Shown here: positions 20,161 through 35,374 of the stretch, piece by piece | Layout: the number at the start of each line of letters is the position of its first letter | Position numbering within the stretch: position 1 is the first letter of the stretch | Origin: Candidatus Bathyarchaeales archaeon | GTDB taxonomy: Archaea; Thermoproteota; Bathyarchaeia; Bathyarchaeales; Bathycorpusculaceae | Length of the DNA stretch: 46,405 nt | Assembly (NCBI GenBank): GCA_049718365.1 | Contig: JBNARN010000001.1 | Span: 1 to 46,405, forward strand | Direction: 5' to 3' | Translations under genes and position numbers: made by a program | The notes under the pieces: model-generated | What the model was told of the DNA's origin: nothing | Database searches by the model: none | What the model saw: only the letters and a program-made list of their open reading frames with translations

Positions 20161-23100
20161 TTAAGCGAAATCTACAAGACGGAATTGCTTGGGTTTTTTA
20201 TTATCGAACATCAATGTGATTTCGTCTTTTATTAAGGCGATTCGCTGAGCGTAATATTTTGGTAATCCATATTTATCAATCAATTGTTGCGCTGCTGTAA
20301 GATATTTTTCTATGCCGCCGCGATAAACCGTAAGTGTTAAGAGACCACCGCAGAAAGGGCACTTGCCTGACAAAGGCAAACGGCGAAAACGCTTGTTACA
20401 TGATTTGCACCTAAATCCTTGGGTTGAAAAAGCACGCAAATTGCCAGAGATGTCTCGAAGGAAATGAGTGGTCAACACTTTTAAGGCGACACGCTTCACG
20501 TCCACAGCGGCGATTTTTTCACCTAACGCTAGTTGCATGTTTAATTTTTCAATCATCGACTTAAACTGCTTGTAAGAGCTAACTGCGTTGCCGAGGTTTA
20601 TGTTTGAAAGAGGCGTGGTAAATCTGAACCCCTCAAATTGTCCTTCGGTTCCAAGTCTATGACTGACAAGGTCTATAATAGAGCTAACTTGCTTAGCGTC
20701 AACTCGCTCCAAAGTCTTTTCATAAAATTCAAGCGGGTATGCCCCCTCAACATCAAAATCATGGGCTTGCCGCTGCACTTCCCGAGTATTCACAAAAGGA
20801 ATCAACAATAAAGGCGCATCCATAATTCCACCTATCTGCGCAGGCAAGTAACTGCGAGAAAAGTTGAGCAACGCATCTAAAGCCAGCAAGACAGCATCCT
20901 CATCACCGTCGCAGTCTCTACGTTTAGCCGAGTGCCAAATAGGATGAGCGTAACAAACATTGAGGTCAGTAAACCCGACAATGCGACCCAAGATGCCGAC
21001 ACAAGTGTGTGGCGCCAGACCCATAATCAGATGACCCACAAGGTCATCAGTTCCTTTGACGTTATAGTACCTTGGAAGCTTGTAGACTTTTTCTAGGAGT
21101 TCATCTATGAAGGCTGCGACCCGCACAAAGTATTCCGCTGCTTTCCGCGGAATTACAACATCTTGAATTTTAAGTTCACACACTTGGTTAGAATCAGTCA
21201 ATGGAGAACCACATATATCAAAGGAATACCCAAGTTGTCTAAGCTTTTCAACGGGCACACCGACCTCAACGGGCTTAAAATGCGTTAAAGGCGCGTTAGT
21301 GGCGTCAAATCTAATTGTTCCATCTTTGTAAACTGATAATTCATGCTTTGCCCGCAAAACACCCTTTTCAACAATTTCAGGAATCTTGTCTTCATTAGTT
21401 AAGCCCTTAACACCTTTCAAAAATTTCGGTGTAGAAACGCCAAGCAAGCGACAGGCATCTTCAAGCAGATCCTTAAAGTTAACTGCTTGCCGCTGGTATG
21501 CTACAGCAACAGTTTTACAGGTGGGGCAGGTGTTATCCTTTAAAATTTTACCGCAACGCGGGCAACTTTTCTCAACAACAGTTTCGCATCCACAGTCAGC
21601 GCACTTTACTTTGAAAGTAAAAGTCTTACAGTTGGGGCACTTACGTTTGATAACCTCAACAAAAACAGGCCCTTTTTTTGCCGCTTCCAAAAGGTCCCTA
21701 TGGGAGCCGCCAGCTAAGCTTACTGGAAAAAGAGCGTGAACTAGAGGTTTCATCTCCCGCCTTTTTGCCTTCTCAGGCCGTCCCATACGGGCACCCACAA
21801 AGGTAGGCGCCTTATCCTTGATTTCAACGCCAGAAAGTAAACTAATTGCCTTCAGCACAGACATGTCTTGGTTGGCTTCAACTTTTCGGGAAGTGCCATA
21901 GCCAAGACAGAAAGCTAGGGCGCACGCATCGTTCCCTTCAATTACAATTTTGCTTTCGAGAATCCTGTGAGGTGCAAAGATTTTTCGTAAAGCCTGAACT
22001 ATGTTTGGCTCAATGGCTCCTACAATTTTGCAAGCAAGACCATCCTCGAGGATTACTGAGGAATTGTCCAGCCATTTTCTTAGCAATGTGATTTCTTGAA
22101 GCGACTCCAAGTTTGACCAGAAAAACGTAAACTCTGGATGCAAAGGCACATTAAAAGTTACAGCCAACATTATTGCTTCTTTGGCAGAAGGCTTGGTAGA
22201 AAAAGGCGATTCAAATAAGGCGGTTAATCTTTCCTCTGAAATTTGGACTGCCTCAGCGGCTTTTTTCAAGTCTCCGCCAAATCTTTCGGTAAGAACCTTC
22301 TTTAGATCTTGAGCCCACCATTCCTCAACATACCCTGATGGAGAAAGACTCTTGCTGGTATAAAGGAAATCGCCGAAGCTGATTAGAATGTCTCCTAAAA
22401 ACAGAATTTTCTCAATCTTATCCTTTATTGAGTCAAAATTTTCAAGGGAAACACGGACAACTGAGCCATCATTCAACAAGACAATGGGAGGTTCAAGAGT
22501 ATCTACAGGAACAGTAACTCCGCCTTTACCTGGAAGCTCAAGACGCATTTGAGTGCCAGCGGCAAGAAAGCGCTCAACCACAAGCATAGTAGCAGGGTGA
22601 ATCCCCACAGCTGAAAGTCCCGTGTTTCGGGCACGACCATATCTAAGCCTGAAGCCTCCGCGTCTGGATGGAAAAGAGAAAATGGGGCGGCCAGCAATCA
22701 CGTCATCCATGAATCCGGCAGATTTCTTCTCTGATTTTTTTCGAAACTCCCGAAGCCAGTCCCAACCTTGAAAGCCAAGTTTTTCGATGATAACTAAAAC
22801 TTTTGGAGCTCGCCCAACTACGCCGTCATTGACAACTCGTAGGGCACCGCCTCTTACACGGTTAGTCTCGATTCTTTCAAGATTTCGGAAAGATGAAACC
22901 TCTATTGGATCAGATTCTGTGCCCGTCACCTCTACGGGAAGCCATTCAAGGGCTTTTTTTAATTCTTCGTCAGAAACATGATATTGAAAACGGCCTACTG
23001 AGCGTTCATATAATCTTAGCTCCTCAAGAAAGCGAGAAATTTCTTCTGCCGTCGGCTTATAACGATCAAGGCCTAACAAGCGGCGTACAAAATCTCCAAC

Positions 23101-23565
23101 AACAAGCGTTAATGCTTGGTCTGTCCCTCCTGCGGATCTTATTGGTCCCGCAAAGTATATGGCAAGATATCTGGATCGATCTGCATTAGTCTTTATTTTT
23201 ACTTGAGCTACACCTTGTATTGGCGCTGCCGTGAGACCCTCAGTAAATATTGCAAGTGCAGTGCGTATAGCTTGCTCTGCCGCAGCTTCAGATTCCATAC
23301 GGCCAAATTTGCCATAGACGATTTCTTCAGCAATTTTAAAAGCTATTTCTTCCCGCTGGAGCTTGGCGCTTAATTCGCGAATGCTGACGGCCACACCTTT
23401 TGGGCCAACGAGCCCTTCGACAAGTTCAGCTATATCTTGAGCAATGAGGCATTCAGTCTTTAATGACGGGTCAAGCCCTCTTGACCTAGCGAGATCGCTT
23501 ATTTCATACAACTGCTTAAGCTGGCTATCCAGCATTTCGACGTACTTCTTGTGACACAGGCTCAT
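20161..23565 (-). CDS. polC: DNA polymerase II (PolD) large subunit DP2
   Basis: Taking the start at M57 (ATG 23565) gives 1134 aa. The N-terminus YVEMLDSQLKQLYEISDLARSRGLDPS...AQDIAELVEGLVGP and IYFAGPIRSAGGT are typical of DP2. So are the internal Cys clusters, the C-terminal CKSCNKRFRRLPLSGKCPFCGG and HPIWHSAKRRDCDGDEDA. The length gives no sign of an intein. Confidence 0.95.
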   Translation of the reverse strand: MSLCHKKYVEMLDSQLKQLYEISDLARSRGLDPSLKTECLIAQDIAELVEGLVGPKGVAVSIRELSAKLQREEIAFKIAEEIVYGKFGRMESEAAAEQAIRTALAIFTEGLTAAPIQGVAQVKIKTNADRSRYLAIYFAGPIRSAGGTDQALTLVVGDFVRRLLGLDRYKPTAEEISRFLEELRLYERSVGRFQYHVSDEELKKALEWLPVEVTGTESDPIEVSSFRNLERIETNRVRGGALRVVNDGVVGRAPKVLVIIEKLGFQGWDWLREFRKKSEKKSAGFMDDVIAGRPIFSFPSRRGGFRLRYGRARNTGLSAVGIHPATMLVVERFLAAGTQMRLELPGKGGVTVPVDTLEPPIVLLNDGSVVRVSLENFDSIKDKIEKILFLGDILISFGDFLYTSKSLSPSGYVEEWWAQDLKKVLTERFGGDLKKAAEAVQISEERLTALFESPFSTKPSAKEAIMLAVTFNVPLHPEFTFFWSNLESLQEITLLRKWLDNSSVILEDGLACKIVGAIEPNIVQALRKIFAPHRILESKIVIEGNDACALAFCLGYGTSRKVEANQDMSVLKAISLLSGVEIKDKAPTFVGARMGRPEKAKRREMKPLVHALFPVSLAGGSHRDLLEAAKKGPVFVEVIKRKCPNCKTFTFKVKCADCGCETVVEKSCPRCGKILKDNTCPTCKTVAVAYQRQAVNFKDLLEDACRLLGVSTPKFLKGVKGLTNEDKIPEIVEKGVLRAKHELSVYKDGTIRFDATNAPLTHFKPVEVGVPVEKLRQLGYSFDICGSPLTDSNQVCELKIQDVVIPRKAAEYFVRVAAFIDELLEKVYKLPRYYNVKGTDDLVGHLIMGLAPHTCVGILGRIVGFTDLNVCYAHPIWHSAKRRDCDGDEDAVLLALDALLNFSRSYLPAQIGGIMDAPLLLIPFVNTREVQRQAHDFDVEGAYPLEFYEKTLERVDAKQVSSIIDLVSHRLGTEGQFEGFRFTTPLSNINLGNAVSSYKQFKSMIEKLNMQLALGEKIAAVDVKRVALKVLTTHFLRDISGNLRAFSTQGFRCKSCNKRFRRLPLSGKCPFCGGLLTLTVYRGGIEKYLTAAQQLIDKYGLPKYYAQRIALIKDEITLMFDNKKPKQFRLVDFA

Positions 23566-23704
23566 TTTACTGCTCAAGCGTTGCGTCCCGCCAAACAGGT
23601 TTAATAAAAGGGAGATTATTTTTGGCTTTCTAGCATAAAAACTAAAAAAAGGCTCAAGAGAAAAGGCGAATTCAGAGGTTTTTAACTCAAAAAGAATATA
23701 GCCT

Positions 23705-24454
23705 TCAAGACTTAGGCCTTTTAACACCTTCAATTATCTCAGATAGTTTCTGTCTATCCACAGCGTTTTCAACGACGTTACCGGTGACGATTATGTCGGC
23801 GCCCGCTGAAACTGCAGCTAAAGCTTGCTCCTTAGTTCTTACTCCTCCGCCAACAATAAGAGGGATATCTATGAAGTGCTTAATTGTCCTGATCATTTCA
23901 GGCGGCACAGGAGTCTTCGCTCCGGAACCGCCCTCGAGATATATGAAATGCATGCCAAGGTACTGTCCAGCGAGGGCATGAGCCGCTGCGAGTTCAGGTT
24001 TATCGTATGGCACTGGAATAGCCTTGCCAACTATCCCCGCAGTTCCTCCTTCACCAACGATTATGTACCCCATAGAAATCGGTTCTAAACCATATTTCTT
24101 TACTAAAGGTGCACCTAGGATTTGGGCGCCTATAAGGAAATAAGGATCCACAGAGTTCAAAAGCGACATAAACCATATGGCATCTGCGTAACGGCTTATT
24201 CCCGTTATATTATTAGGGAAGAGAATTATGGGAACCTTCACCACGCGTTTAATAGCTTTAACCATAGAATCAAGGTGCGCTTGCGAAACAAAAGTGGAGC
24301 CACCGATCATGATGGCGGAAGTTCCACTGATTTCAGAGGATTCAGCAACTCGTGCGGCTTGCGGCGGAGTCATTTTTTCAGGATCTATAAGAGTTATGTG
24401 AATTGAGCCTTCTTTGATTTTTTCGAGAAGATACTGTTCGACCCGTCCAACCAT
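23705..24454 (-). CDS. Geranylgeranylglyceryl phosphate synthase (PcrB/GGGPS family)
   Basis: 249-aa TIM-barrel pattern: ITLIDPEK..., IMIGGS, ILFPNN and YLEGGSGA...PLIVGGGVRT are typical of GGGPS. Confidence 0.85.
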   Translation of the reverse strand: MVGRVEQYLLEKIKEGSIHITLIDPEKMTPPQAARVAESSEISGTSAIMIGGSTFVSQAHLDSMVKAIKRVVKVPIILFPNNITGISRYADAIWFMSLLNSVDPYFLIGAQILGAPLVKKYGLEPISMGYIIVGEGGTAGIVGKAIPVPYDKPELAAAHALAGQYLGMHFIYLEGGSGAKTPVPPEMIRTIKHFIDIPLIVGGGVRTKEQALAAVSAGADIIVTGNVVENAVDRQKLSEIIEGVKRPKS

Positions 24455-24474
24455 GCTTAAACCTCTTATTCTGT

Positions 24475-24744
24475 CTAAGCAGTCTGCCCGTTCGTTACAG
24501 AAGATCTTTTCGAGGCGCTATAAACTCTGTCAGTTAGCATGCAGTAAACGTCAACTTCGCCCTGAGCAGGTTTAACTTGAAATTCCTCCTGAAAACCACA
24601 GCTGCTACAACCTGCAACAGCACGCTCTTGCTCTCTGAAAATTTCAACTCTAACAGTTTCTTTCCCACATTTAGGACAAGAGAAGAACTTAGGCAAACGC
24701 TTCTTGGGAATACGAACAACCTTTTTCCTTCTTCGCCCCATCAC
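24475..24744 (-). CDS. elf1: Transcription elongation factor Elf1 homolog (zinc ribbon)
   Basis: MMGRRRKKVVRIPKKRLPKFFSCPKCGKETVRVEI...GCSSCGFQEEFQV...EVDVYCMLTD matches the Elf1 pattern: a basic N-terminus, a C4 ribbon and the DVY motif. Confidence 0.8.
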   Translation of the reverse strand: MMGRRRKKVVRIPKKRLPKFFSCPKCGKETVRVEIFREQERAVAGCSSCGFQEEFQVKPAQGEVDVYCMLTDRVYSASKRSSVTNGQTA

Positions 24745-24842
24745 ACATCTCTTCTATAGGATACGTTTACGTTTTCTTTAATATTTATGCTTGCTCTTAA
24801 ATACTTGCTCGCAACAATAGAAAAATTTGGAGAAATGCGCAA

Positions 24843-25685
24843 ATGAAATTAACACCTACTACGCTGGAACTGAATTTACCGGAAGTTACGAAGAAAATTT
24901 GCCGCTTCATAAAAGAATACATTGAGAACGCGGGGGCCAACGGCATAGTTCTTGGTTTGTCAGGTGGAATTGACAGCAATACAGTAGCGGCGCTTTCCAG
25001 TTTGGCAATAGGCGGAGACAAAGTGATTGGGCTTATACTTCCAGAAAAAGAAACATATAACGCCAAAGACATCGATGACGCAAAATTCGTTGCCGAAAAA
25101 TTCGGTTTAACAACGCAAATTTGTGACATCACAAGCGCTTTAGAAAGTTTCTACAAGACAATACCAATATTTGACCCAGAAGATAGACTCTGTAAAGGCA
25201 ATATAAAAGCAAGAGTTAGAATGATTTACCTATATTACTATGCAAATAAGCGCAATATGATAGTCTGTGGAAGCTCAGATAAGTCAGAGACAATGATGGG
25301 ATACTTCACCAAATGGGGCGATGCCGCGGCGGACATAGCGCCAATTATGGATTTATATAAAACGCAAGTTCGCAAACTAGCTGAGCATGTAGGGATACCG
25401 GCCAGACTCGCGGCCAAGCCATCCACACCTGCTCTTTGGCCCAATCAACTCGCAGAAACAGAACTTGGCATCAAATATGAAACCCTTGATTTGATTCTTT
25501 ATGGACTTGAGCATTTTATGGCAACAGAGGAAATCGCAGAGCAACTAGGCGTTAGAAAGGAGATTATTGAAAAAGTAAAGAACAGATGGCTCGCAGTAGA
25601 ACATAAAAGGCGCTTGCCCCTAGCACCAAAAATTGAATACAGAACAGTGGGCGCTGATTTTAGAATCCCGAGGCACAGATATTGA
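24843..25685 (+). CDS. nadE: NAD+ synthetase (synthetase-domain-only NadE)
   Basis: 280 aa with the PP-loop GLSGGIDS and YFTKWGD motifs. It has no fused glutaminase domain. Confidence 0.9.
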   Translation: MKLTPTTLELNLPEVTKKICRFIKEYIENAGANGIVLGLSGGIDSNTVAALSSLAIGGDKVIGLILPEKETYNAKDIDDAKFVAEKFGLTTQICDITSALESFYKTIPIFDPEDRLCKGNIKARVRMIYLYYYANKRNMIVCGSSDKSETMMGYFTKWGDAAADIAPIMDLYKTQVRKLAEHVGIPARLAAKPSTPALWPNQLAETELGIKYETLDLILYGLEHFMATEEIAEQLGVRKEIIEKVKNRWLAVEHKRRLPLAPKIEYRTVGADFRIPRHRY

Positions 25686-25691
25686 GAAATA

Positions 25692-26540
25692 ATGGGCTGG
25701 GAAATAATGAAAGAGAAAATTAAAGTTGCTCTCGCGCAAATATGCAGCAACCGTGAAAACAAAGAAGCAAACCTGCGGAAAATAGAGGCTTTTACCGTAA
25801 GAGCAAAAGACCAAGCCGCTGACCTTGTGATTTTTCCAGAGCTTTCATTAACTGGATACGTCTTACATGATCAACTTTACGAGTTAGCTGAAGCAATACC
25901 AGGTCCATCAACCAAAAGAATAGAGGAAATAGCAAAGAAAACAGGGCGGCACATAATTTTCGGCATGCCTGAACTAAGCGGGCAAACAAAGGCCACATTA
26001 TTCAACACGGCAGTCCTAGTTGGACCAAAAGGGTTCATTGGAAAATACCGCAAGATGTATCTACCCACTCACAGTGTCTTCGAAGAAAAAAGATACTTCC
26101 GCCCAGGCTACCAAGCAACCGCATTTAATACGCCCATAGGGAATATAGGGTTGATCATATGCTACGATATTTTCTTTCCAGAAATATGCCGCCTTACAAG
26201 ACTGAAAGGAGCAAACTTGATAGTATGCATATCAGCGTCTCCTGCTATTCGCAAAAGCTACTTCGAGCTTCTAACTGCAGCAAGAGCCTTGGAAAACACA
26301 GTTTTCCTCGCATATGTTAACCTTGCAGGGTTTGAGGACGGGCTGCAATTTTGGGGTGGTAGCAGACTATTAAGTCCAACAGGAGATTTGCTGGCAAAAG
26401 CAAAAGAAGATGAAGAAGACATTGTTGTCTGCGAAGTTGATTACAGAGACATAAAGCCTGCTGAAATCTTTATTCCTATCCTCAAAGATTTGCGTCCAGA
26501 ACTTTTTGACGAACTGAAAAAGCAAGCAGAAATGCTATAG
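25692..26540 (+). CDS. Carbon-nitrogen hydrolase (nitrilase superfamily), candidate glutaminase partner of NadE
   Basis: It has Glu-Lys-Cys triad contexts: VIFPELSLTGY, KYRKMYLP and GLIICYDIFFPE. It starts 6 nt after the nadE stop; the ATG at 25707 (MKEKIKVALAQ) is an alternative start. Confidence 0.8.
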   Translation: MGWEIMKEKIKVALAQICSNRENKEANLRKIEAFTVRAKDQAADLVIFPELSLTGYVLHDQLYELAEAIPGPSTKRIEEIAKKTGRHIIFGMPELSGQTKATLFNTAVLVGPKGFIGKYRKMYLPTHSVFEEKRYFRPGYQATAFNTPIGNIGLIICYDIFFPEICRLTRLKGANLIVCISASPAIRKSYFELLTAARALENTVFLAYVNLAGFEDGLQFWGGSRLLSPTGDLLAKAKEDEEDIVVCEVDYRDIKPAEIFIPILKDLRPELFDELKKQAEML

Positions 26541-26575
26541 CTTAAAATCTATTTATTTCAAATTTTAATTCTGCA

Positions 26576-26777
26576 GTGATAGATCACAAATCACGGTTAC
26601 ATCACAGTGTGCTGTGACATCAAGGGGTCAGTACATAATCACGCGTGATTTCCTTGTGATAAGTGACGTCACATTACAAGGGAGATTGTTTACTGCTAGA
26701 CCTATATCACGCGGAAAATTTTAAGTGACTAGTGATAAAGTGAGAGTCACTATGTCTTGCCCAGCTATTGAGGTGAC
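26576..26777. promoter_or_regulatory. Array 1 of WATCACR/YGTGATW half-sites and palindromes (putative protein-binding sites)
   Basis: About 15 RTCAC/GTGAY cores lie within ~200 bp. They include GTGAT-AG-ATCAC (26576-26587) and TCACAG-TGTG-CTGTGA (26602-26617). There are two perfect palindromes, the 14-bp AATCACGCGTGATT (26637-26650) and the 10-bp GTGACGTCAC (26663-26672). AGTGACT...AGTCACT (26724-26751) is a further inverted repeat. Confidence 0.6.
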
Positions 26778-27084
26778 TTGAATAGCAGAAATTAAGAAAA
26801 TCCTTAGTAGATAGAGTGAGTGAAGCAAAATTTGATGACTGGCTGCTTGCACAAACGCTTCATCCACACTCTTTTTGCAATTTTAAGACGCAATTTTGAC
26901 TTTAAATGAGTAATAGCAAATTTTAGTGAGCTAATTTTGGTTTTAATGTTTAAAATAGGCTTTTTTTAAAGGGTAAGAACAAGTTTTTATTAAAGGAGAC
27001 AGCTAAAAGCAACAGTCAATAAGTTTAAAAGCGGTGCCAGTATACAAAAGTGTATCCATTTGAAAGGTCTCAGGAGATAAGGCT

Positions 27085-27564
27085 TTGAAGCTGAAAGAAG
27101 GCGTTCAAGCATGGCTAAACGGGGCATTAAATGATCCCATTACCAAAATTCTTTATAAAAATAGCCAATTAACAAGAACACAGCTTGAAACATTGCTTAT
27201 AGATATTTTAGCTGAAAATTTATCAGGGAAACACTTAAAATACGATGAAAAAGCCAGCTTAAGGCTAACTAAGGCTAAAATAAGTCGAGGAGCCTTTAAT
27301 AGGACTTTAAAACAGGCCAGGGAAAACGTAATAAAATCAATATACACAGTGCTGCTTTTGGGTTATCTAGGGATTTTTGAAAGCACAACTCTTGACCCAT
27401 ATCTCGAAATAGCCAACAAACTAAAAGATTACGTCGAAGCATACAAAGACATGCCAGAAACGGATAAAGAGCGAAATGACCATCTAAAAGTCATAGAAAT
27501 CATACGAGAAGAGCTTGAAACAAGCCTAAAACGGCTTTCTTCACCCTCAGCGGAGGAAGTGTGA
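27085..27564 (+). CDS. Hypothetical 159-aa protein with a possible sigma-70 region 4/Tfx-like HTH
   Basis: TTG start preceded by CAGGAGAT. The segment LTKAKISRGAFNRTLKQARENVIKSIYTV resembles LuxR/sigma r4-type HTH helices, and the C-terminal half is acidic and helical. The gene is flanked on both sides by the WATCACR arrays. Confidence 0.5.
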   Translation: MKLKEGVQAWLNGALNDPITKILYKNSQLTRTQLETLLIDILAENLSGKHLKYDEKASLRLTKAKISRGAFNRTLKQARENVIKSIYTVLLLGYLGIFESTTLDPYLEIANKLKDYVEAYKDMPETDKERNDHLKVIEIIREELETSLKRLSSPSAEEV

Positions 27565-27860
27565 CATCACAAATCACAGCAAATAAATAGCAAAGGAACA
27601 CCAAAAGTGCACAAAAAGGCAGATGCTTTTAAAAAGGCAAAAATCAGAAAATAAGCCATAAAATCAGAGATTTATAACGAATAGCAGATCGGAGGAACAT
27701 AAGTAGAAGTGTGATGTGTGATATCATAAGATGATGTTGCGTCAGATCACCGCAAGACTTAAATTTTCCATGGAAAACTGTGATGTGTGATGCAACGTGT
27801 TAAATCACGCGTAAATCACGGAAGTGCCGCACGTGATTGAGGTTTCACTAATAATCACGA
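27556..27860. promoter_or_regulatory. Array 2 of WATCACR half-sites and direct repeats (putative protein-binding sites)
   Basis: GAAGTGTGA occurs at 27556 and 27706. The 13-bp direct repeat TGTGATGTGTGAT occurs at 27710-27722 and 27779-27791. Tandem TAAATCACG sites start at 27801 and 27812, 11 bp apart. There is an inverted CACGTGATT (27831-27839) and a TAATCACG (27852-27859). The array overlaps the stop of the 159-aa ORF and the start of the 240-aa ORF. Confidence 0.6.
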
Positions 27861-28546
27861 TAATTCTACTTATGGTAACAGTCGGCGCTTCTATCGAGTA
27901 CTACAAACAGATTCGCAAAGCTCAAAAGGAATATGAAAAGGCTAGAGAAATAATAGAAGACATCGTGCTTAGTTTTAGCCGCGAACTAAAGCGAGAAGCG
28001 GAAAGCATAGAGGGAATAGCGTTTAAGTTAGAAGGGAATGCAGCAAAGGCAGAGACGAGCCTTAAAAAAACAGAAAGACTCGAAAGGCAATTGGCACTTA
28101 TAGAAAACGCGCTGAAAATGCTTTCTGAAAACTATACAGGAATCTTATCAAAAACTGTAGAGATTGAGGCAAAAACCAACAATATTGAGGCAACATGCCA
28201 AACGCTGAAAGCAAAAATCACAGAAGTGGAAGAGCAGGCGCAGAAAGCAGCTGCAATACCGGAAATAAAGAGTGAGCCAGTTATACCAATAAGAAGAGAC
28301 AAGGCGATGTCGGCATTAACGGACACCGAGATAGCGGTTTTAGAACTGCTTGTGACAGAGGGCCCGAAAACGGCGCCTGAGATTAGGGATAAAATTGGGC
28401 TTAGCAGAGAACACACTGCGCGACTTATGAAGAAACTTTATGAAGAAGGCTACCTTGAAAGAGAGACAGGCAAAATTCCATTTAGGTATAGCGTCAAAAA
28501 AGAAATGGAAAAATTCTTAAAGAAAGCAGAAAGCGAGCAAATGTAA
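27824..28546 (+). CDS. Membrane-anchored coiled-coil protein with C-terminal MarR/TrmB-type winged helix
   Basis: 240 aa. It has an N-terminal TM helix (VSLIITIILLMVTVGASI) and a ~130-aa heptad-rich helical region. The C-terminus is LTDTEIAVLELLVTEGPKTAPEIRDKIGLSREHTARLMKKLYEEGYLERE (wHTH). The GTG start lies inside array 2. Confidence 0.6.
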   Translation: MPHVIEVSLIITIILLMVTVGASIEYYKQIRKAQKEYEKAREIIEDIVLSFSRELKREAESIEGIAFKLEGNAAKAETSLKKTERLERQLALIENALKMLSENYTGILSKTVEIEAKTNNIEATCQTLKAKITEVEEQAQKAAAIPEIKSEPVIPIRRDKAMSALTDTEIAVLELLVTEGPKTAPEIRDKIGLSREHTARLMKKLYEEGYLERETGKIPFRYSVKKEMEKFLKKAESEQM

Positions 28547-28547
28547 A

Positions 28548-30077
28548 TTATACCAAAGCCTTTTCTTGACCATTCAACTGTTTAAGCCGCGCGTTCATGT
28601 TCGAAAGGGATGAAGAATCTGGGAGACCATAGTCAGCGTTACCGCGTTTCGCCAAATAATCAGGGTAATGGATGACTTTTATCGGAACAGCAAATTTGAT
28701 CTTTGGCTCAGAAATAAGCAGGGCTTCACCTACATCAAGCATCTTTATTTCGGTTTCACTGTACTCCATGTAAGGCGTGTTCTCAGTTAAGTATTGTCTA
28801 TCTTTCTTCAGCTCGGTTTTCATTATAACCTTAGTCCATAATTCAGCAAAAACATCAAAAGTAATTCTAGAAGGTCTCGGCGTCACAGCGTTAAGACCAA
28901 CACGGTACTTGCGGTAGGTGAGGGCAATATCCGAAAAAATTGTCCTCGAGCCGTTTGGGTCAAGAAATTCGTGTGCTTCTTCAAGAGTTATAAGCAAAGT
29001 AGGAAGCTTCTGCCACTCCTCGTAATTCTCTTCCCACATGCGCTTGTAATGTTCGGCAACTGCTGATGCGGATAGGCAAACAATGCGTTTTTGGTCTTCA
29101 GAACGAAGACCCGAAATGTCAATTAAACAAGTTACACCTTTGCAAATATTTTGCAAAACGCTGTCAACGAAAGAATAATTGGTGACGGGAAAAAGCTCAT
29201 TAGACAAAGAAGAAAGTTTCTGCATGAGGGCCTCAATAACAACTTTATTCGCTTGCACAGGAAGCTTCTCGCCCTTTGCATAGGTTTCTCGGCTTATTTC
29301 AATCCAAGCGGATCCAAAATGCTGGTAAAGAGCTCGCGCTAGTCTTTTTTGAGGAGGTTGAATATCTGGGAAAAGCGTGTCTAGCTTGGCAGGAGTTATC
29401 GTTCGTAAACCAACCGCCATTTTCCCGTCTCTAGCTGAGTAATATTGTACCTTACTGTGAAAAAGAGGGTGATCTCTTAAGCCTCTTTGCGGTTCAATTT
29501 CTTTCCCTTCTAATAGTTGACCTGCAAAATCGTAGATTAACGCTACCGTTCTAGGGCTATTATCGATTATTTGAGCGTTTAGAATTAATTCAGTATTTGT
29601 CTTTCCTGAACCAGTCATGCCGAACATGCCCATCATTCGAGGGATTGCAGAGATATTTATGCCCACTGAACCGAGCAATTGGTCAGCTGAGCGTAAGCGT
29701 CCTATTTCAAGGTCTCCGGAAAGTTTTAGAATGGCGCAGTCTTCCTCGTTTGTTGCATAGACCTTATCTCGGTAATTTGGGTTAAAAGTAGGCGAGCGTA
29801 CTCGGTTATTTCTTTTTTCCAAGAAGAGTATTGCGTCTACACGTCTATACGCTGAGTATGGTCCAAAAGCTTCTTTGCCTTCAGCCTCTCGTAGCTGCTC
29901 AATGGTTTCAAGGGTAGAGCTGCTTTCCGAGTTAACTACTCGTGCATAGAAGCACCTGTCGCTTGAGTCTATGCGTACTATTTGACCGAAGGACAAGTGA
30001 ATGTTCTTATTAACTAAGAAAGAGACAGAGTCTCCTTTAGTTCCACATACGAATCCTATTGGTTCAAGGTTGTCCAT
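28548..30077 (-). CDS. herA: HerA-like (DUF87/FtsK-HerA superfamily) ATPase
   Basis: It has an N-terminal HAS-barrel-like region (EPIGFVCGTKGDSVSFLV...GQIVRIDS...FYARVV), Walker A (GMTGSGKTN) and Walker B (LLITLEEAHEFL). The preferred start is ATG 30077, preceded by GGAGTGGTGGG, and it overlaps the nurA-like stop by 14 nt. Confidence 0.8.
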   Translation of the reverse strand: MDNLEPIGFVCGTKGDSVSFLVNKNIHLSFGQIVRIDSSDRCFYARVVNSESSSTLETIEQLREAEGKEAFGPYSAYRRVDAILFLEKRNNRVRSPTFNPNYRDKVYATNEEDCAILKLSGDLEIGRLRSADQLLGSVGINISAIPRMMGMFGMTGSGKTNTELILNAQIIDNSPRTVALIYDFAGQLLEGKEIEPQRGLRDHPLFHSKVQYYSARDGKMAVGLRTITPAKLDTLFPDIQPPQKRLARALYQHFGSAWIEISRETYAKGEKLPVQANKVVIEALMQKLSSLSNELFPVTNYSFVDSVLQNICKGVTCLIDISGLRSEDQKRIVCLSASAVAEHYKRMWEENYEEWQKLPTLLITLEEAHEFLDPNGSRTIFSDIALTYRKYRVGLNAVTPRPSRITFDVFAELWTKVIMKTELKKDRQYLTENTPYMEYSETEIKMLDVGEALLISEPKIKFAVPIKVIHYPDYLAKRGNADYGLPDSSSLSNMNARLKQLNGQEKALV

Positions 30078-31083
30078 CCCACCACTCCCATTGGAAAGCA
30101 TATTTTACACCATGAATTTCGTCAGCAAAGCGGCATGAAAGTTCTTCTCTTCGCAGGATTTCAAGTAATCCCGCCTCTTTCAATTTTTCTTCAATTTGTT
30201 CATGGTAAAAAAGCAGCATGGAATCTGAAGGGGCGGAAAACTCGTGGGCCAAATAAAGGCTTATTGGATAGCCGAGGCACCGCGGGTCAGTAGATACTGC
30301 AGTTAATGGCGAAAGCAGCTCGCAGATGTCATTTTTGGTCAAGTAATCCATTATATCACAACGGAAAACATGAGGACTGTCAGCGCATAGCTTCACAAGT
30401 GCTATGTCTCCATACAAGCTTTTGTCCTTGTCAGCCTTTTGCACAGGATGATAAACCCAAATGTCATAAGGAGCCATTGTGTACGTAGTAGAAATCAGAT
30501 CCCGGCCTTTATCATCATGTAAAGCAGGCGAATTTTTACTGATTGCCAAGAGATTAACGCCGCTTTTTTCGCATTCATCGTAAAGCATCACGCGAAATTT
30601 TCTTTCTCCACCGAAATATCCGCCGCCGTCAAGGAGAAGGTATATACTACGTGCATTGTTATGTGCGTGGTAAAAATTGGAAGTCGCGGCTTTAAGAGCG
30701 TTCAGAGCAACTTGGCTTTCTAATTCAATTCTAAAGTCTTGTAGGAAACTTCTCCTTGTGCGTGCATCCCCGATAACTGTGCAAACTCTTTCGAAATAGC
30801 TCCAATCTACCATGCGCTCTTTAACAACAACATAGGCGACCCGCATCAGATAAACGCCCCAGTTATTAGCTCTTTTCAGTGTCCGCGTAGAGCAATCGAC
30901 AGCTATGAAACTTCCAGAGAAATGGGTGAAAGGTTGTAAAGGCTTTATTAAAGCGGCGTCTGGCTTAACAGAGAATAATGGTTCCTCGTGTAATTCGGCG
31001 CTGCCGGTGACCCTGCCTTTGTCAACGTAGCATTTAAGTTTCTTTTCCATTTCTGCCAAATCTGGCTCAAGAGTTTGATTCAT
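30064..31083 (-). CDS. nurA: NurA-like nuclease
   Basis: Its motif series matches NurA: FIAVDCS, RIELES, LLLDGGG, AISKNS and GYPISLYLAHEFS. The ATG at 31083 is preferred over the TTG at 31095. Confidence 0.7.
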   Translation of the reverse strand: MNQTLEPDLAEMEKKLKCYVDKGRVTGSAELHEEPLFSVKPDAALIKPLQPFTHFSGSFIAVDCSTRTLKRANNWGVYLMRVAYVVVKERMVDWSYFERVCTVIGDARTRRSFLQDFRIELESQVALNALKAATSNFYHAHNNARSIYLLLDGGGYFGGERKFRVMLYDECEKSGVNLLAISKNSPALHDDKGRDLISTTYTMAPYDIWVYHPVQKADKDKSLYGDIALVKLCADSPHVFRCDIMDYLTKNDICELLSPLTAVSTDPRCLGYPISLYLAHEFSAPSDSMLLFYHEQIEEKLKEAGLLEILRREELSCRFADEIHGVKYAFQWEWWDGQP

Positions 31084-31181
31084 CGACTCGCCCAAATGTT
31101 GCAGCGGAACAATATTTAGAGGCCTAAAACGTAGTTTTTATGTTTTGTGCACACAGAAAAATGGAAAAGTCTTTTCTGAGA

Positions 31182-31625
31182 TTATTTAAACTGTTGTTTT
31201 ATTGTAGCATGCGGAACGTTCGGTGCAACTTTATACTTTAGGCTATTTGCTCCACCAGTTCTCAAGAGCAAACCTTTATTCGCCATTCTTGCAAGGTATG
31301 TTGAAACAGTACTAAGGCCTATTGGCTCCTTAAATTCCTGCTCGTAAACGGCTTGGACGTCCTTTGAAGAAAACCAGATGATTGGAAAATGTTTCTTAAT
31401 AACATAATGAACTTTTTCAAAACGTGAAAGGCTATTGCTTGTCAAGTTGCTACCAGCGACAGAAGTTGTTTCTTCGTTCGGCATGCCGCCTAATAACTCT
31501 ACGAGATCCAGCAAGTGTAGAGCTTTTTCTCGAGTGATTTGGCCCTCGAAAGCTATAGTGTAACGATTGCCTTCGCTATCGAATAGCTCTACACGCATTT
31601 TCCGCGCTGGCATTACAGAGTACAC
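31182..31625 (-). CDS. Hypothetical protein with C-terminal winged helix-turn-helix
   Basis: 147 aa. The C-terminal FSSKDVQAVYEQEFKEPIGLSTVSTYLARMANKGLLLRTGGANSLKYKV looks like a wHTH; the N-terminal ~45-aa domain was not recognised. The start is ambiguous (GTG 31625, ATG 31613 or ATG 31598). It is the first gene of the nurA/herA-like operon. Confidence 0.5.
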   Translation of the reverse strand: MYSVMPARKMRVELFDSEGNRYTIAFEGQITREKALHLLDLVELLGGMPNEETTSVAGSNLTSNSLSRFEKVHYVIKKHFPIIWFSSKDVQAVYEQEFKEPIGLSTVSTYLARMANKGLLLRTGGANSLKYKVAPNVPHATIKQQFK

Positions 31626-31795
31626 CTAGGTGCTGTTCACAATTTTTACACTTCACAACTTATAGCTGTTATGGTTAAAAAACAAAAAGTTAAAAGCTCA
31701 AATATCAGCTTATTTGCTTAAAAAGCCAAAATTTGCAGCTTACTTAGCTTAACAAGTTTCACAACATCTTTAAAAAATAAAAAAATTCAAGCATT

Positions 31796-31834
31796 ACCCC
31801 TATTTTTTATTTCCAATAGAAACTTAGGGGTGTC
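31796..31834 (+). promoter_or_regulatory. ORB-like origin recognition box 1
   Basis: The sequence is ACCCCTA-ttttttATTTCCAATAGAAACT-TAGGGGTGTC. A TTTC..GAAA dyad is followed by a GGGGT G-string, as in archaeal ORBs. A mirrored ACCCCTA copy lies upstream. Confidence 0.6.
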
Positions 31835-32062
31835 TCTTTCACAAGAAATAAGCATAGAAAATGGTAATTTCACAGAAAAGGAGGCAAATAAACAACAAAT
31901 AAAGTATAATTTCACATGTCTTTCACAAAATTGTGAAAATAAAAACCCAAAAGTCTGGAAAAGCAGCTAAACAGTATTGGTATACAAGGTACTTTTTCAA
32001 TAACAAGTGAGAGAACCAATGGCTTTTCCTGTTTGTACATAACGAAATTTCATTAAAACACA

Positions 32063-32098
32063 GACACCCCTCCATTTCCTCTCGAAAACTAAGTGGAA
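32063..32098 (-). promoter_or_regulatory. ORB-like origin recognition box (inverted orientation)
   Basis: The plus strand reads GACACCCCTCCATTTCCTCTCGAAAACTAAGTGGAA. This aligns with the reverse complement of ORB1 (GACACCCCTAAGTTTCTATTGGAAAT), with an identical GACACCCCT and a similar dyad. Confidence 0.55.
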
Positions 32099-32241
32099 TA
32101 AATCGAGTTGTGAAGACAGAAAAAATTTGTGTTAAAGTTTATCTAAAAAGTTTAATCATAATTATTAATATAGTTTTATTCGTATTACCTCGCAGAGTAT
32201 ATTTCTTTATGAAAAGAAATCAAATACACTTTGACCTATAT

Positions 32242-32274
32242 AGAGTATATTTCCAGTAGAAATTTTGGGGTGTG
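32242..32274 (+). promoter_or_regulatory. ORB-like origin recognition box 2
   Basis: AGAGTATATTTCCAGTAGAAATTTTGGGGTGTG has a TTCCAGTAGAAA dyad plus a GGGGTGTG G-string. It resembles classical ORB/mini-ORB sequences (TTCCAGTGGAAA...GGGGT). Confidence 0.65.
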
Positions 32275-32416
32275 TGGCTAACATGTTTAGGCAAATATGC
32301 CCTAAAAGTTTCGTTAGTTTTTAGGATTATTGAACATTAGAACTATTTTTTTATACTGCATGCTTTATCTGCTCCACTTGAAATAACGGTAGTGCCGCTG
32401 AAAAGGAGGGGGTAAC

Positions 32417-33649
32417 ATGGGTAATCAAAAAATACTTGATGATGTCTTCGAAAATTTCGTAAATGGTGCTCAGATCTTTAAGGATCGTGAGGTCTTAAGG
32501 CATGACTATCTACCTGAGAAACTACCCCATAGAGAAGAACAAATAAGACTTCTGGGAACAATAGTCGCGCCTGTTTTAAAAGTTGCACGATGCTCTAACA
32601 TTTTCATTTATGGTAACACTGGAACTGGTAAAACTGCTGTAACTAAATACGTTTTAAGCCATTTAGAAACTAAAGCAAAGATGTATGGTGTTCCTGTGAA
32701 ATTTTCTTACGTGAACTGCCGGATGACTGGTTCTGAATACCGGGTTTTTGCAAGTCTGAGTCAAAGTGTTGGTATAAGCGTGCCTTTTACTGGTTTGTCG
32801 GTTGACGAAGTTTTTGATAGGTTTAGAGTAGGTTTAGATACAGCAAAAACGATTTTTATCGTGGTATTGGACGAAATAGACGCTTTAATTAAAAATCGCG
32901 GTGATAAACTTCTTTATGAATTAACCAGAATAAATGAAACATTGAACAAAAGCAAAGTTTCAATAATTGGTATATCTAATGACTTGCGCTTGAAGGAATT
33001 TCTTGATCCTCGAGTTTTCAGTTCTCTTAGCGAAGAGGAGTTAGTTTTTAGGCCTTATGATGCAGGTGAATTGCGGAATATTCTTCTTGAACGTTCAAAA
33101 TTATCTTTCTATGAAGGTGTTCTTTCTGAAGCTGCCTTGAACGTTTGCTCTGCGTTAGCTGCTGCTGAGCATGGTGATGCTAGGCGTGCTTTAGATTTAT
33201 TGCGCGTTGCCGGGGAAGTTGCTGAACGCCAAGGGGCAAAGATGATTTTAGAGGAGCATGTTAGAGAAGCTGAGAGGCATATAGAACACAATCGTGTTAT
33301 GGAAGCTTTGAAGAACTTAACTTTGCACTCAAAGCTGGTTCTTTTAAGCGTGTATAGTTTGAATAAAGCAAGCGCGACTACTGGCGAGATCTATGACCTC
33401 TATAATACATTCTGTGGAGAGTTAGGAATAGGGCTTCTTACCCAACGGCGCCTAAGCACCTTAATTAATGAACTTGATGCAATGGGTATTCTAAATGCAA
33501 AAGTTGTTAGCATGGGCCGTTATGGCCGTACAAAAAAGATCAGATTAGAAATATCCCGAGTGTTGATCAGAGATGTCTTTGAAAGCGACAACCGAATAGG
33601 ACGCTTACTTGATTATAAATCTAAGAGCCCTCAAAAGTGCAATCAATAA
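32417..33649 (+). CDS. cdc6: Orc1/Cdc6 replication initiator
   Basis: 410 aa. It has Walker A (GNTGTGKTA), Walker B (VVLDEID), the sensor region GDARRALDLLR and a C-terminal winged helix. A strong GGAGGGGGT element lies 5 nt upstream of the ATG. Confidence 0.93.
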   Translation: MGNQKILDDVFENFVNGAQIFKDREVLRHDYLPEKLPHREEQIRLLGTIVAPVLKVARCSNIFIYGNTGTGKTAVTKYVLSHLETKAKMYGVPVKFSYVNCRMTGSEYRVFASLSQSVGISVPFTGLSVDEVFDRFRVGLDTAKTIFIVVLDEIDALIKNRGDKLLYELTRINETLNKSKVSIIGISNDLRLKEFLDPRVFSSLSEEELVFRPYDAGELRNILLERSKLSFYEGVLSEAALNVCSALAAAEHGDARRALDLLRVAGEVAERQGAKMILEEHVREAERHIEHNRVMEALKNLTLHSKLVLLSVYSLNKASATTGEIYDLYNTFCGELGIGLLTQRRLSTLINELDAMGILNAKVVSMGRYGRTKKIRLEISRVLIRDVFESDNRIGRLLDYKSKSPQKCNQ

Positions 33650-33817
33650 GGTTCTGCGCAGATCCGTAAGCTTAGCTGTTTAGCCCTCCGCTTTACGTTT
33701 GGGTTATCACGAAATTCAGTTGTGCTATTATTGTAACTTTAGTTTTAAGTGCTTGTTCCTTTCCTATACGATCTTGGTAAATTTTTGCTGATAGCGCTAC
33801 TGTGAGTTTAGCCTTGT

Positions 33818-35374
33818 CTAAATGAATGAGAGAATCATTGTTTCCAATGTTTGTAAATTCACTACCGGCACTTTTCCCGGTGTTGGGTTTAATCCAAGTT
33901 TTTGCATGTACTCTGTCTGTTCTTGCCAACAACCAGAATTCACAATTAATACTCCACGGTGATTGCAATGGCCAATGACATGGACGTGGCCAGCGTGGAA
34001 AATGTCTGGAACGCGCTCTATTACAAGAAAATCTTTGTTTTCTGGTGATAAGAGTGTTTTTCCGCCGTACACGGGTGCTAAATGGCGACTTTGAAGAAGC
34101 AGTTTCATCGCTTTCTCAGGACGTTCATGGCTTAACCCTGGCGCTGTGGCTATTATATCGTCTAAACTGCGGCCGTGGTACATTAAAACTTCCACGTTAT
34201 GAATGCTAACCCAACAAGGGCTACCAAGAGAATGTACTCTCCTGGATTTTTGTAGAATTTCCAAAAATTCTCCTGATATCGCTGGTTGGGGCAGCGCTTT
34301 TCGTGGTGTGTCGTGGTTTCCGGGGGAAATGATGACTTCTATGTAGTCTGGGATGCGTTCAATTAGTTTTGAGGCAAATTTGTATTGGTTATATACGTCT
34401 CTTATTACCAGTTCCTTCATTTGATTGGGGTATATTCCGATTCCGTCAATTATGTCGCCTGCAATTAGCAGGTATTTTACATGACCCGCTATCTCTTTCA
34501 TCTTGTCATTTCCGTATTTGCCGTTGAGCCATAGAATGAAGCGCTTGAAGGCTTCGCGATTAAACTTTGCGCTGCCCACATGGATGTCTGAAGTAAGCAC
34601 TGCGTAGATGGGTTCTGATGCCTTACGCCTAGGCTTCTGGTCTACCTCTGGAAAAATTATGTCCTCGACCAAGAAAAACTTGCTTCGTGTTTTTACCACA
34701 GCTAAACATACAACTTGATCTGGGAGAAGCTGCTGTGCTTTTTTATGGAGTTCTTCTGATGCTTGCCGAGGAACTAAAACATTCGCAAACGCCTCTAGAT
34801 CTTCGACAGTTAAAATTATGTTCTGTTTTGCTTCTCTTTTTTCTGTCACCATGCCAATTATTTTAAGTTTGGTTTTAGCAGGTGACTTTAGAGCTTCCAG
34901 TATAGGCGTTGCGGCTTTAACATCAAGTCTTTGCCTTAATAAGCGTTCAATTCGTTTAAACCTGTCCTGAAAATATTTAAGGTAATCCTCAACTGTTCCA
35001 TTAGCGCTAAGCTTGCTTGTAGGGTCCTCTATAACTTTAATGGCTGCTTCTACATCCTTTGCGTAAGGCTGGAAAGTGCTTCCGCCCTCGGTTATATACT
35101 GCTGCTGTGGAGGCTCAATTTTTTCGCTCTGAATTTCGATTTGTTCGCTTTTTGTAGCCTCTGGTTGTTTAAGCAGCGTTTCTAAAAAGCTGCGGTCGAT
35201 GAATAGTGGCTTTTCAGGCAATTCTTCTAATCTTTGCAACGCTCTGCTTATTATGGTGGCTGGGTCATCCATGGCGGCGGCGTGGTGTAAATAATCAAAC
35301 GCGTCGCTACTTAACTGATACCCTGCTGCAATTGTTGCTTCAACTGCTCTTTGCAGTTTTTCTTGTTCACTCAT
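33818..35374 (-). CDS. polB: DNA polymerase II (PolD) small subunit DP1 (Mre11-like phosphoesterase/exonuclease)
   Basis: It has the C-terminal calcineurin-like motifs VLTSDIHVGS, LLIAGDIIDG, ISPGNHD, YHGRS and HAGHVH, plus an OB region upstream. The ATG at 35374 is preferred and overlaps the upstream gene's stop as ATGA. Confidence 0.9.
   Translation of the reverse strand: MSEQEKLQRAVEATIAAGYQLSSDAFDYLHHAAAMDDPATIISRALQRLEELPEKPLFIDRSFLETLLKQPEATKSEQIEIQSEKIEPPQQQYITEGGSTFQPYAKDVEAAIKVIEDPTSKLSANGTVEDYLKYFQDRFKRIERLLRQRLDVKAATPILEALKSPAKTKLKIIGMVTEKREAKQNIILTVEDLEAFANVLVPRQASEELHKKAQQLLPDQVVCLAVVKTRSKFFLVEDIIFPEVDQKPRRKASEPIYAVLTSDIHVGSAKFNREAFKRFILWLNGKYGNDKMKEIAGHVKYLLIAGDIIDGIGIYPNQMKELVIRDVYNQYKFASKLIERIPDYIEVIISPGNHDTPRKALPQPAISGEFLEILQKSRRVHSLGSPCWVSIHNVEVLMYHGRSLDDIIATAPGLSHERPEKAMKLLLQSRHLAPVYGGKTLLSPENKDFLVIERVPDIFHAGHVHVIGHCNHRGVLIVNSGCWQEQTEYMQKLGLNPTPGKVPVVNLQTLETMILSFI

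Follow-up and report, generated by a model that had tools for sequence, protein, structure and literature searches.

A divergent HerA–NurA gene pair and candidate repressor genes beside the replication origin of Bathyarchaeia

The window analysed here is the whole stretch of 46,405 nucleotides at positions 1 to 46,405 of contig JBNARN010000001.1 (Candidatus Bathyarchaeales archaeon). It is part of a Bathyarchaeia chromosome, and named homologues of the region's proteins come only from Candidatus Bathyarchaeota/Bathyarchaeia. The subject is a block of five genes, g1 to g5, which lies between genes of nicotinamide adenine dinucleotide (NAD) metabolism and the replication origin, oriC, and which includes a HerA-like ATPase gene and a NurA-like nuclease gene. 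A preliminary description of the sequence had proposed that the five form one self-contained DNA-targeting or DNA-processing module. All five open reading frames (ORFs) are present, and the starts of g5, g4 and g3 could be refined from the lengths of their orthologues. The genes and the origin are as follows.

27085–27564, plus strand: g1, 159 residues, helical, TTG start
27824–28546, plus strand: g2, 240 residues, GTG start, with a transmembrane (TM) helix at residues 4–22, a coiled coil and a C-terminal TrmB/MarR-type winged helix at residues 165–224
28548–30077, minus strand: g3, HerA-clade ATPase, 509 residues, start corrected from orthologue lengths (the longest ORF reaches 30101)
30064–31083, minus strand: g4, divergent NurA-family nuclease, 339 residues, start corrected from orthologue lengths
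31182–31613, minus strand: g5, 143 residues, start corrected from orthologue lengths
31810–32274: oriC core, with three origin recognition boxes (ORBs), TTCACA boxes and an AT-rich stretch
from 32417: cdc6, adjoining oriC

To assess conservation, the proteins of the window were compared by tblastn with 86 loci. Among species-representative genomes, a scan gave 97 relatives, with 80 loci retained, all from Bathyarchaeia except one in a metagenome-assembled genome (MAG) that is probably contaminated or mislabelled (L044, DATGZD010000115.1): labelled Candidatus Sulfotelmatobacter sp. (Acidobacteriota), it holds a complete Bathyarchaeia origin block at 63–81% protein identity. In nearly every locus with sufficient flank (about 80 species loci) the gene order is DP1–cdc6–oriC (three ORBs)–g5–NurA (g4)–HerA (g3)–g2–g1–carbon-nitrogen (CN) hydrolase–NAD synthase–geranylgeranylglyceryl phosphate synthase (GGGPS). 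The origin-linked copy is single, class-wide and colinear, and identity to the window ranges from 65 to 97% for HerA, against 62 to 99% for Cdc6, in the tblastn loci. Because the order is colinear in nearly every locus and the identity range of HerA is like that of Cdc6, the block is read as vertically inherited; its gene order and conservation carry the signature of strong constraint, unlike what a mobile element or defence island would show. Throughout the class, the motif arrays described below and the other genes are conserved together with the pair, so that the refuting case named in the preliminary description, which includes a lack of such co-conservation, does not hold.

The 14-nucleotide overlap first described between g4 and g3 holds with the corrected g3 start at 30077, and the two genes are translationally coupled. 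The HerA-like call for g3 holds: it passes the Pfam DUF87/HerA central domain (36.6 bits against a cut-off of 23.2) and matches Sulfolobus HerA (PDB 4d2i) at E 5.5e-16 over about 380 aligned residues, the alignment beginning at residue 89. Aligned motifs comprise TGSGKTNT (Walker A), EEAH (Walker B), PRP/QRP (arginine-finger region) and LDVGEA, the HerA motifs are retained in 75–76 of 76 g3 orthologues, and g3 can be assigned by sequence to the HerA clade of ATPases with its motifs intact. For g4, which has no direct sequence match in the PDB, the NurA-like assignment of the preliminary description was upheld by indirect routes. Searched with a profile built from 24 orthologues, a set of 1.84 billion cluster representatives yields, beyond the family itself, full-length proteins of 320–380 residues (E 1e-12 to 1e-5) that pass Pfam NurA and carry the source names NurA of Thermoprotei and DPANN archaea. 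When extended to 28 sequences, the profile matches Sulfolobus NurA (2ygk) at E 9.6e-8, aligning the motifs aiDgs/AIDGG, lEs/LEL, LDG/MDG and GYPxxLxxAH (GYPFPLLKAH in 2ygk); D63, E122, D152 and GYP are invariant among the 28 sequences, which include bona fide NurA, and the catalytic D-E-D-H motifs are retained in 72–73 of 77 orthologues. A Foldseek search with the AlphaFold model of g4, which is of low confidence (predicted local distance difference test, pLDDT, 58), placed NurA 2ygk and the Thermococcus kodakarensis HerA–NurA complex (9x1l_G) first, at E about 2e-4 and a TM-score of about 0.4, followed by EndoV and PIWI, which is the expected RNase H-like neighbourhood. Taken together, the transitive profile matches, the 2ygk profile match, the fold search and the conserved D-E-D-H set mark g4 as a divergent NurA-family nuclease, and the catalytic motifs of the pair are intact and under selection. 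When a canonical NurA was sought in Bathyarchaeia, the nearest outside relatives were the DPANN and Thermoprotei proteins; locus L091 was rejected as informative on Bathyarchaeia, since it shares with the window only aIF5A at 48% identity.

In archaea HerA–NurA is the motor of DNA-end resection, and it is usually interpreted alongside Mre11–Rad50. Like g4 and g3, the genes of the characterised resection complexes (Sulfolobus 4d2i/2ygk, T. kodakarensis 9x1l and Deinococcus 7f6d) form an adjacent overlapping pair, and the motifs in common extend to Walker A, EEAH, the arginine-finger region and LDVGEA in g3 and to D-E-D-H in g4, whose low-confidence model also suggests the RNase H-like fold. By analogy with the solved complexes, the HerA ring translocase would feed DNA ends to a dimeric NurA nuclease in an ATP-driven, 5'-3' reaction. 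The most probable function of the pair is that of HerA–NurA in other organisms, and it would act in end resection and recombinational repair. What sets g4–g3 apart from the known complexes is that the pair is preceded by a dedicated winged helix-turn-helix (wHTH) gene and is fixed beside oriC throughout the class.

HerA-clade ATPase domains are also found in the anti-phage systems Sir2–HerA and DUF4297–HerA and in the import ATPases CedB and CedD, and the preliminary description had listed defence, or a domesticated plasmid or virus module, among the candidate roles. Such a system would direct a HerA-type ATPase and a nuclease against foreign DNA under helix-turn-helix (HTH) control, and there is some evidence of this kind: g3 matches the PADLOC HerA and mad8 models weakly (41–42 bits), and one MAG, which also holds an origin copy (L016), carries a second NurA-like/HerA-like pair in an island (L056:1505–14803). 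That island runs tyrosine integrase, N6 methylase with an HsdR-N domain, type I S subunit, the pair, HEPN AbiV, RadB-like protein and family B polymerase, so that the paralogous pair sits among an integrase, a type I restriction-modification methylase with its S subunit and the HEPN AbiV gene. The island HerA and NurA share 72% and 58% identity with those of the window, and their identity to the origin-linked copies does not exceed 74% and 62%. The origin-linked copy itself is a different matter, being as conserved as Cdc6 and vertically distributed across the class rather than patchy. No Sir2 or DUF4297 partner or other effector of those systems accompanies the pair; PADLOC and PHROG searches gave no matches for g4, g1 or g5, none of which has relatives in 2.9 million viral contigs; and no compositional break was found. 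As first described, the 46-kb window contains no tRNA, integrase, Mre11 or Rad50. CedD, the NCBIfam model on which g3 scores best (71 bits), is defined by a TM helix and a VirB4-like N-terminal domain, both of which g3 lacks (PMC11868833). A defence system or domesticated mobile element is thus considered highly improbable.

Upstream of the pair, on the same strand, lies g5. Its protein begins with a beta-beta-alpha domain, which a disordered linker joins to a C-terminal winged helix similar to those of Fur, RosR and BlaI/MecI; the winged helix is modelled at pLDDT 85–93 (69 for the whole model, from a shallow alignment). The wHTH of the preliminary description was retained, and its length of 147 residues was revised to 143. 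The g5 promoter and the adjoining origin contain the following elements.

31637–31665, minus strand: g5 promoter, with TATA box CTATAAG at 31659–31665 and TTGTGAA boxes at 31653–31659 and 31637–31643, conserved in 23 lineages
31810–31833, plus strand: ORB1
31838–31843: TTCACA box, 5 nucleotides after ORB1
31911–31916: TTCACA box between ORB1 and ORB2
31922–31937: TTGTGAA-class dyad TTCACAAAATTGTGAA between ORB1 and ORB2
32065–32087, minus strand: ORB2
about 32100–32240: AT-rich unwinding stretch (GC content 0.23–0.24 over 32100–32249)
32250–32274, plus strand: ORB3

In archaea of the Pyrococcus/Sulfolobus type, oriC consists of ORB boxes beside the orc1/cdc6 and PolD genes. The window has the same arrangement, with three ORBs containing G-strings (conserved in 19 lineages), the AT-rich stretch and adjacent cdc6 and DP1, and these features confirm, at the level of sequence, its identity as oriC. 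What distinguishes it is another conserved family of boxes, TTCACA, which is set among the ORBs and is held in common with the promoter of the neighbouring wHTH gene: both TTGTGAA boxes of g5 lie between its TATA box and start codon, the first abutting the TATA box, and boxes of the TTGTGAA/TTCACA class reach 8 per 320 bp, where simulations gave 4 at most. In the two loci that have lost g5 (L040 and L069), two ORBs are kept and the TTCACA boxes number 1 and 0, compared with 1–8 (typically 5–8) elsewhere. The natural candidate for binding the TTGTGAA boxes is g5, which would then occupy oriC as well, and this is the most interesting inference from the locus. It is conceivable, if decidedly unlikely, that g5 is a second sequence-specific origin-binding protein which, with the HerA–NurA pair under its control, makes up an origin-associated DNA-processing unit. 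Such a unit might gate initiation, process stalled intermediates or ends at oriC, or position the origin region together with membrane-anchored g2 and its predicted binding sites; end processing linked to the origin, as suggested earlier, is a further possibility. The cdc6 promoter is likewise conserved. Beyond the ORBs, the region upstream of cdc6 (32280–32416) holds the near-invariant blocks TTTTAGGATTATTG, TTTTTTRTACTG, CTTTATCTGCTCCAC and GAAATAACGGT, which may be cdc6 promoter and regulatory elements.

A different set of elements surrounds g2, whose protein has the architecture first proposed for it: a TM helix at the N-terminus (KD19 2.54), which 70 of 73 orthologues also have, a coiled coil of about 130 residues, and a wHTH at residues 165–224 that scores above gathering for both Pfam TrmB (the best, 34 bits against a cut-off of 25.6) and MarR. 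The elements are 7-bp WATCACR units, or heptads.

26575–26675: Block A, an ordered array of 7-bp WATCACR units directly after the CN-hydrolase stop codon
27560–27579, plus strand: heptad pair over the g1 stop codon, TGTGACATCACAAATCACAG, nearly invariant in 19 lineages
27710–27822, plus strand: g2 promoter bracketed by heptads, in invariant or near-invariant alignment columns
27710–27727, plus strand: upstream heptad pair TGTGATGTGTGATATCAT, 5' of the g2 TATA box
about 27758–27764, plus strand: g2 TATA box, CTTAAAT
27779–27792, plus strand: downstream heptad pair TGTGATGTGTGATG, directly 3' of the g2 TATA box
27802–27821, plus strand: two heptads 11 bp apart, AAATCACGCGTAAATCACGG, just before the g2 start

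The claim that these arrays are private to the region was borne out. WATCACR occurs 31 times in the window (17 expected), 11 of these within 26589–27859, and ATCAC reaches 9 per 200 bp and 20 per 1300 bp, against maxima of 5 and 11 in 300 Markov simulations. The contiguous pair ATCACNNATCAC occurs four times (0.05 expected), always in this region. Arrays are found at the same positions in other Bathyarchaeia loci, and most loci that hold the contiguous pair have it in the g1–g2 region. Block A comprises ATCACAAATCAC (26583), a CATCACA-N6-TGTGAC dyad, a perfect 14-bp palindrome AATCACGCGTGATT (26637–26650) and GTGATAAGTGACGTCACA. It is conserved in lineages with a short intergenic region (about 550 bp), lies beside the CN hydrolase in L035 and L077, and is absent from loci of the L013 type; ATCAC counts in long regions upstream of g1 are inflated by conserved matches inside an inserted aminotransferase gene, and Block A is therefore not universal. 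Further GTGA/TCAC sites at 26705–26751, TATCACGCGG and AGTGACTAGTGATAAAGTGAGAGTCACTA, lie beyond the conserved Block A and represent a recent local expansion of the array, since only the closest relative, L007, shares them. Paralogy of g2 and g5 as the source of their related TCACA cores was rejected, as the two have no detectable similarity.

A precedent for assigning the heptads to g2 exists in the TrmB family: TrmBL1 recognises TATCAC-N5-GTGATA, and the half-site TATCAC of this TrmBL1/Tgr operator of the Thermococcales, known as TGM, equals the heptad half-site WATCAC (PMC4706686). Heptads, like TGM, lie both upstream and downstream of the TATA box, and g2 would bind those at its own promoter. 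The likeness has limits. TGM is a palindrome with an N5 spacer, whereas half-sites in the g2 region are 7 bp apart, direct or inverted; and TrmB proteins have an N-terminal wHTH and a C-terminal sugar-binding domain, whereas g2 lacks such an effector domain and consists instead of a TM helix, a long coiled coil and a C-terminal wHTH.

The 7-bp spacing recalls another system, omega/ParB of plasmid pSM19035, which binds WATCACW heptads: the unit is the same, it is contiguous in direct or inverted orientation, and it overlaps promoters of the regulator's own locus, as here (PMC9499535). This resemblance raises the possibility of an origin tethering or segregation module, with membrane-anchored g2 binding heptads 4–5 kb from oriC in the manner of a centromere-binding protein, the HerA translocase acting in chromosome handling and g5 marking the origin. 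The conserved architecture of g2, the agreement, in spacing as well as sequence, of contiguous WATCACR units with omega parS (PMC9499535), the position of Block A away from any promoter, and the proximity of the block to oriC would all suit such a module. Set against this, omega belongs to a bacterial plasmid and is a ribbon-helix-helix (RHH) protein working with ParA on arrays of 7–10 units, of which at least four contiguous heptads are needed to activate ParA (PMC9499535), while runs here reach 2–3 units, no RHH fold was detected in g1 and no ParA/SegA-type ATPase was found in the window. Moreover, most heptads lie exactly at the g2 TATA box and transcription start site (TSS), Block A is absent in several lineages, and segregation does not need a NurA with intact catalytic residues. 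A tethering function is thus very unlikely, and the resemblance to omega is a lead towards it rather than a sign of membership.

The remaining gene, g1, is present in 77 of 86 loci and has no match in Pfam, NCBIfam, PADLOC, PHROGs or the PDB. The 159-residue ORF stood as first described, while the sigma r4/Tfx-like HTH claimed for it came down to a possible, sigma r4-like resemblance of pattern in the segment ISRGAFNRTLKQARENV, with no family match. An RHH reading of its N-terminus found no support, as PDB profile searches, whether run with the full-length protein or with its first 56 residues, gave only chance matches such as KCNE1 and SKP2. A hydrophobic helix at residues 82–100 falls below the usual TM threshold. 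The start codon is TTG or GTG in all 16 aligned lineages and never ATG, with a GGAG-like Shine-Dalgarno sequence upstream, which amounts to a conserved weak start codon. Its promoter, from the same 16-lineage alignment, is a single feature.

27033–27078, plus strand: g1 promoter, with BRE/TATA-like AATAAGTTTAAAAG followed by the inverted repeat GTATACAAAAGTGTAT (27040–27055)

The inverted repeat is of the class GTATAC-N4-GTGTAT and lies immediately 3' of the TATA box; GTATACAAAAGTGTAT is unique in the window and is retained in lineages without Block A.

Alignments of the three intergenic regions across 16–25 lineages thus define three motif classes: WATCACR units around the g2 promoter, GTATAC-N4-GTGTAT at the g1 promoter, and TTGTGAA at the g5 promoter and in oriC. 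At all three promoters the boxes occupy TATA/TSS positions and are conserved across lineages, which is the usual geometry of archaeal repressors. Since there are three DNA-binding proteins and three box classes, each at one TATA/TSS, the genes are proposed to form three autoregulated units, and ordinary operator logic of this kind fits the motifs better than the common DNA-targeting array envisaged in the preliminary description. With modest confidence, the locus is interpreted as a vertically inherited chromosomal block flanking the origin, in which a housekeeping HerA–NurA end-processing pair is placed under local repressors. In this scheme g5 would repress its own promoter through the two TTGTGAA boxes and would also occupy boxes in oriC, both beside ORB1 and at the dyad between ORB1 and ORB2, so that its binding would link the state of the origin with the supply of end-processing enzymes and perhaps also with the activity of the origin. 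The genes g1 and g2, which converge on the pair, would make up a second, separate regulatory unit, with g1 having its own operator in GTATAC-N4-GTGTAT. Which protein binds which box, and that binding represses, we infer from the sequences; synteny is what suggests a functional link of g1 and g2 to HerA–NurA.

Synteny, in turn, says little about function, because unrelated genes nearby, metabolic ones among them, are nearly as fixed: the genes for CN hydrolase, NAD synthase, GGGPS, DP1 and DP2 keep their places almost as well as the five do. In some lineages, moreover, HerA–NurA is found apart from g1, g2 and g5. In two deep lineages (source names Bathyarchaeota or Hecatellales) a NurA-like and DUF87 pair occurs away from any cdc6 and without g5, g2 or g1 (L087:4181–9204 and L089:4488–7873), its neighbours being a 210-residue metallophosphoesterase and a metallo-beta-lactamase-fold gene, to both of which it is divergently oriented, and also a tRNA synthetase. 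In L040 and L069, g5 is missing and g4–g3 are retained, adjoining a shortened origin. On these grounds, and with the island paralogue in L056, the notion of one self-contained five-gene module is at best partly supported. They also bear on a plainer explanation, that HerA–NurA serves ordinary repair, that g5, g2 and g1 regulate something else locally (metabolic or membrane genes, for example) and have no relation to it, and that all are adjacent only through the rarity of rearrangement near the origin. The near-equal synteny of the neighbours, the occurrence of the pair by itself, the independent loss of g5 in two lineages and the failure of the three motif classes to cross-link g1/g2 with g5/g4/g3 speak for it. 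Pointing the other way, g5 is directly upstream of g4–g3 on the same strand and the box of its promoter recurs in oriC, and the block varies slightly less than its flanks: L037, L084, L035 and L072 have lost or moved NAD synthase, CN hydrolase or GGGPS but keep the five genes intact. The stop codons of g2 and g3, moreover, are separated by a single nucleotide (28546–28548); because this gap leaves no room for a terminator, the convergent transcripts must overlap or read into each other. Mere adjacency of this sort is considered unlikely, while retaining more than a token chance.

The interpretation as a HerA–NurA pair under local repressors has other points to answer. Both proteins are very divergent from the characterised complexes: g4 fails Pfam NurA (E 0.22, 11.4 bits against a cut-off of 21) and g3 falls far below the NCBIfam equivalog cut-offs (66 against 800 bits for HerA_Thermprot, 48 against 970 for helicase_HerA and 71 against 600 for CedD), and because the pair is so far from the canonical models, a new function is conceivable. 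Confidence in the structural models of g4 and g5 is low to moderate (pLDDT 58 and 69). Unlike the canonical herA–mre11–rad50–nurA operon, g3 and g4 are not linked to mre11/rad50 in the window or over about 10 kb in L001, L004, L005 and L006, annotated loci in which Mre11 and Rad50 do not occur within 8–10 kb. The g5–g4 spacer is poorly conserved, g4–g3 persist where g5 is lost, and the joint loss of g5 and oriC boxes could reflect one deletion rather than co-dependence. Block A, about 400 bp upstream of the g1 promoter and dispensable in some lineages, is a poor fit to a simple operator role. Lastly, binding of the boxes and repression through it are predictions.

In its wider setting the block forms part of a replication island: DP2, cdc6 and DP1 lie within 15 kb around oriC (20161–35389), with the five genes between them and HerA–NurA thereby embedded. 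The remaining genes of the window are core genes, among them endonuclease V, translin, wyosine enzymes, KsgA, Pus10 and SRP54, as well as NAD kinase, the PolD large subunit, GGGP synthase, NAD synthase, PhoU, GH57 and PmbA/TldD. An Rfam scan of 25500–33000 found no RNA family. Between g1 and CN hydrolase, about 25 loci contain a class I/II aminotransferase gene of about 390 residues (e.g. L013:12027–13386), which is absent from the window and survives in L005 (13951–14845) as a degraded remnant of 128 residues. A conserved ORF of about 110 residues (MNKIHVIRNEDLEKVLIG..HKHLRVC..IFQEATIANI..) directly follows the CN-hydrolase stop codon in the more divergent lineages L040, L062, L064, L074 and L077; the window has no counterpart, and Block A occupies that position. 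In the deep-lineage locus L087, HerA is followed by an apparent tRNA gene and a 219-residue protein resembling ESCRT-III/Snf7, both recognised by eye only, and further on by a 164-residue HTH and coiled-coil protein and a KaiC-like ATPase; the 219- and 164-residue genes were rejected as homologues of g2 and g1, having no homology to them. Literature searches for Bathyarchaeia with HerA, NurA, Mre11 or Rad50 returned nothing relevant and no description of this cluster.

A whole class of archaea keeps a strongly diverged HerA–NurA pair fixed beside its replication origin. At the least, the analysis provides names and cis-elements for five 'hypothetical' genes that are found in thousands of metagenomic contigs. 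Its interest rests mainly on the oriC boxes held in common with the g5 promoter and on g2 with its heptad operators, a membrane-anchored TrmB-type protein with omega-like heptads being an unusual architecture for an archaeal regulator. Were g5 and HerA–NurA to prove an origin-associated unit, this would give HerA–NurA a role outside classical, Mre11–Rad50-linked break resection. Furthermore, if the proposed binding is true, a second family of origin boxes would be added to the ORB/Orc1 picture, and a testable link would be established between the state of the origin and the recombination machinery in a widespread, mostly uncultured group of archaea.

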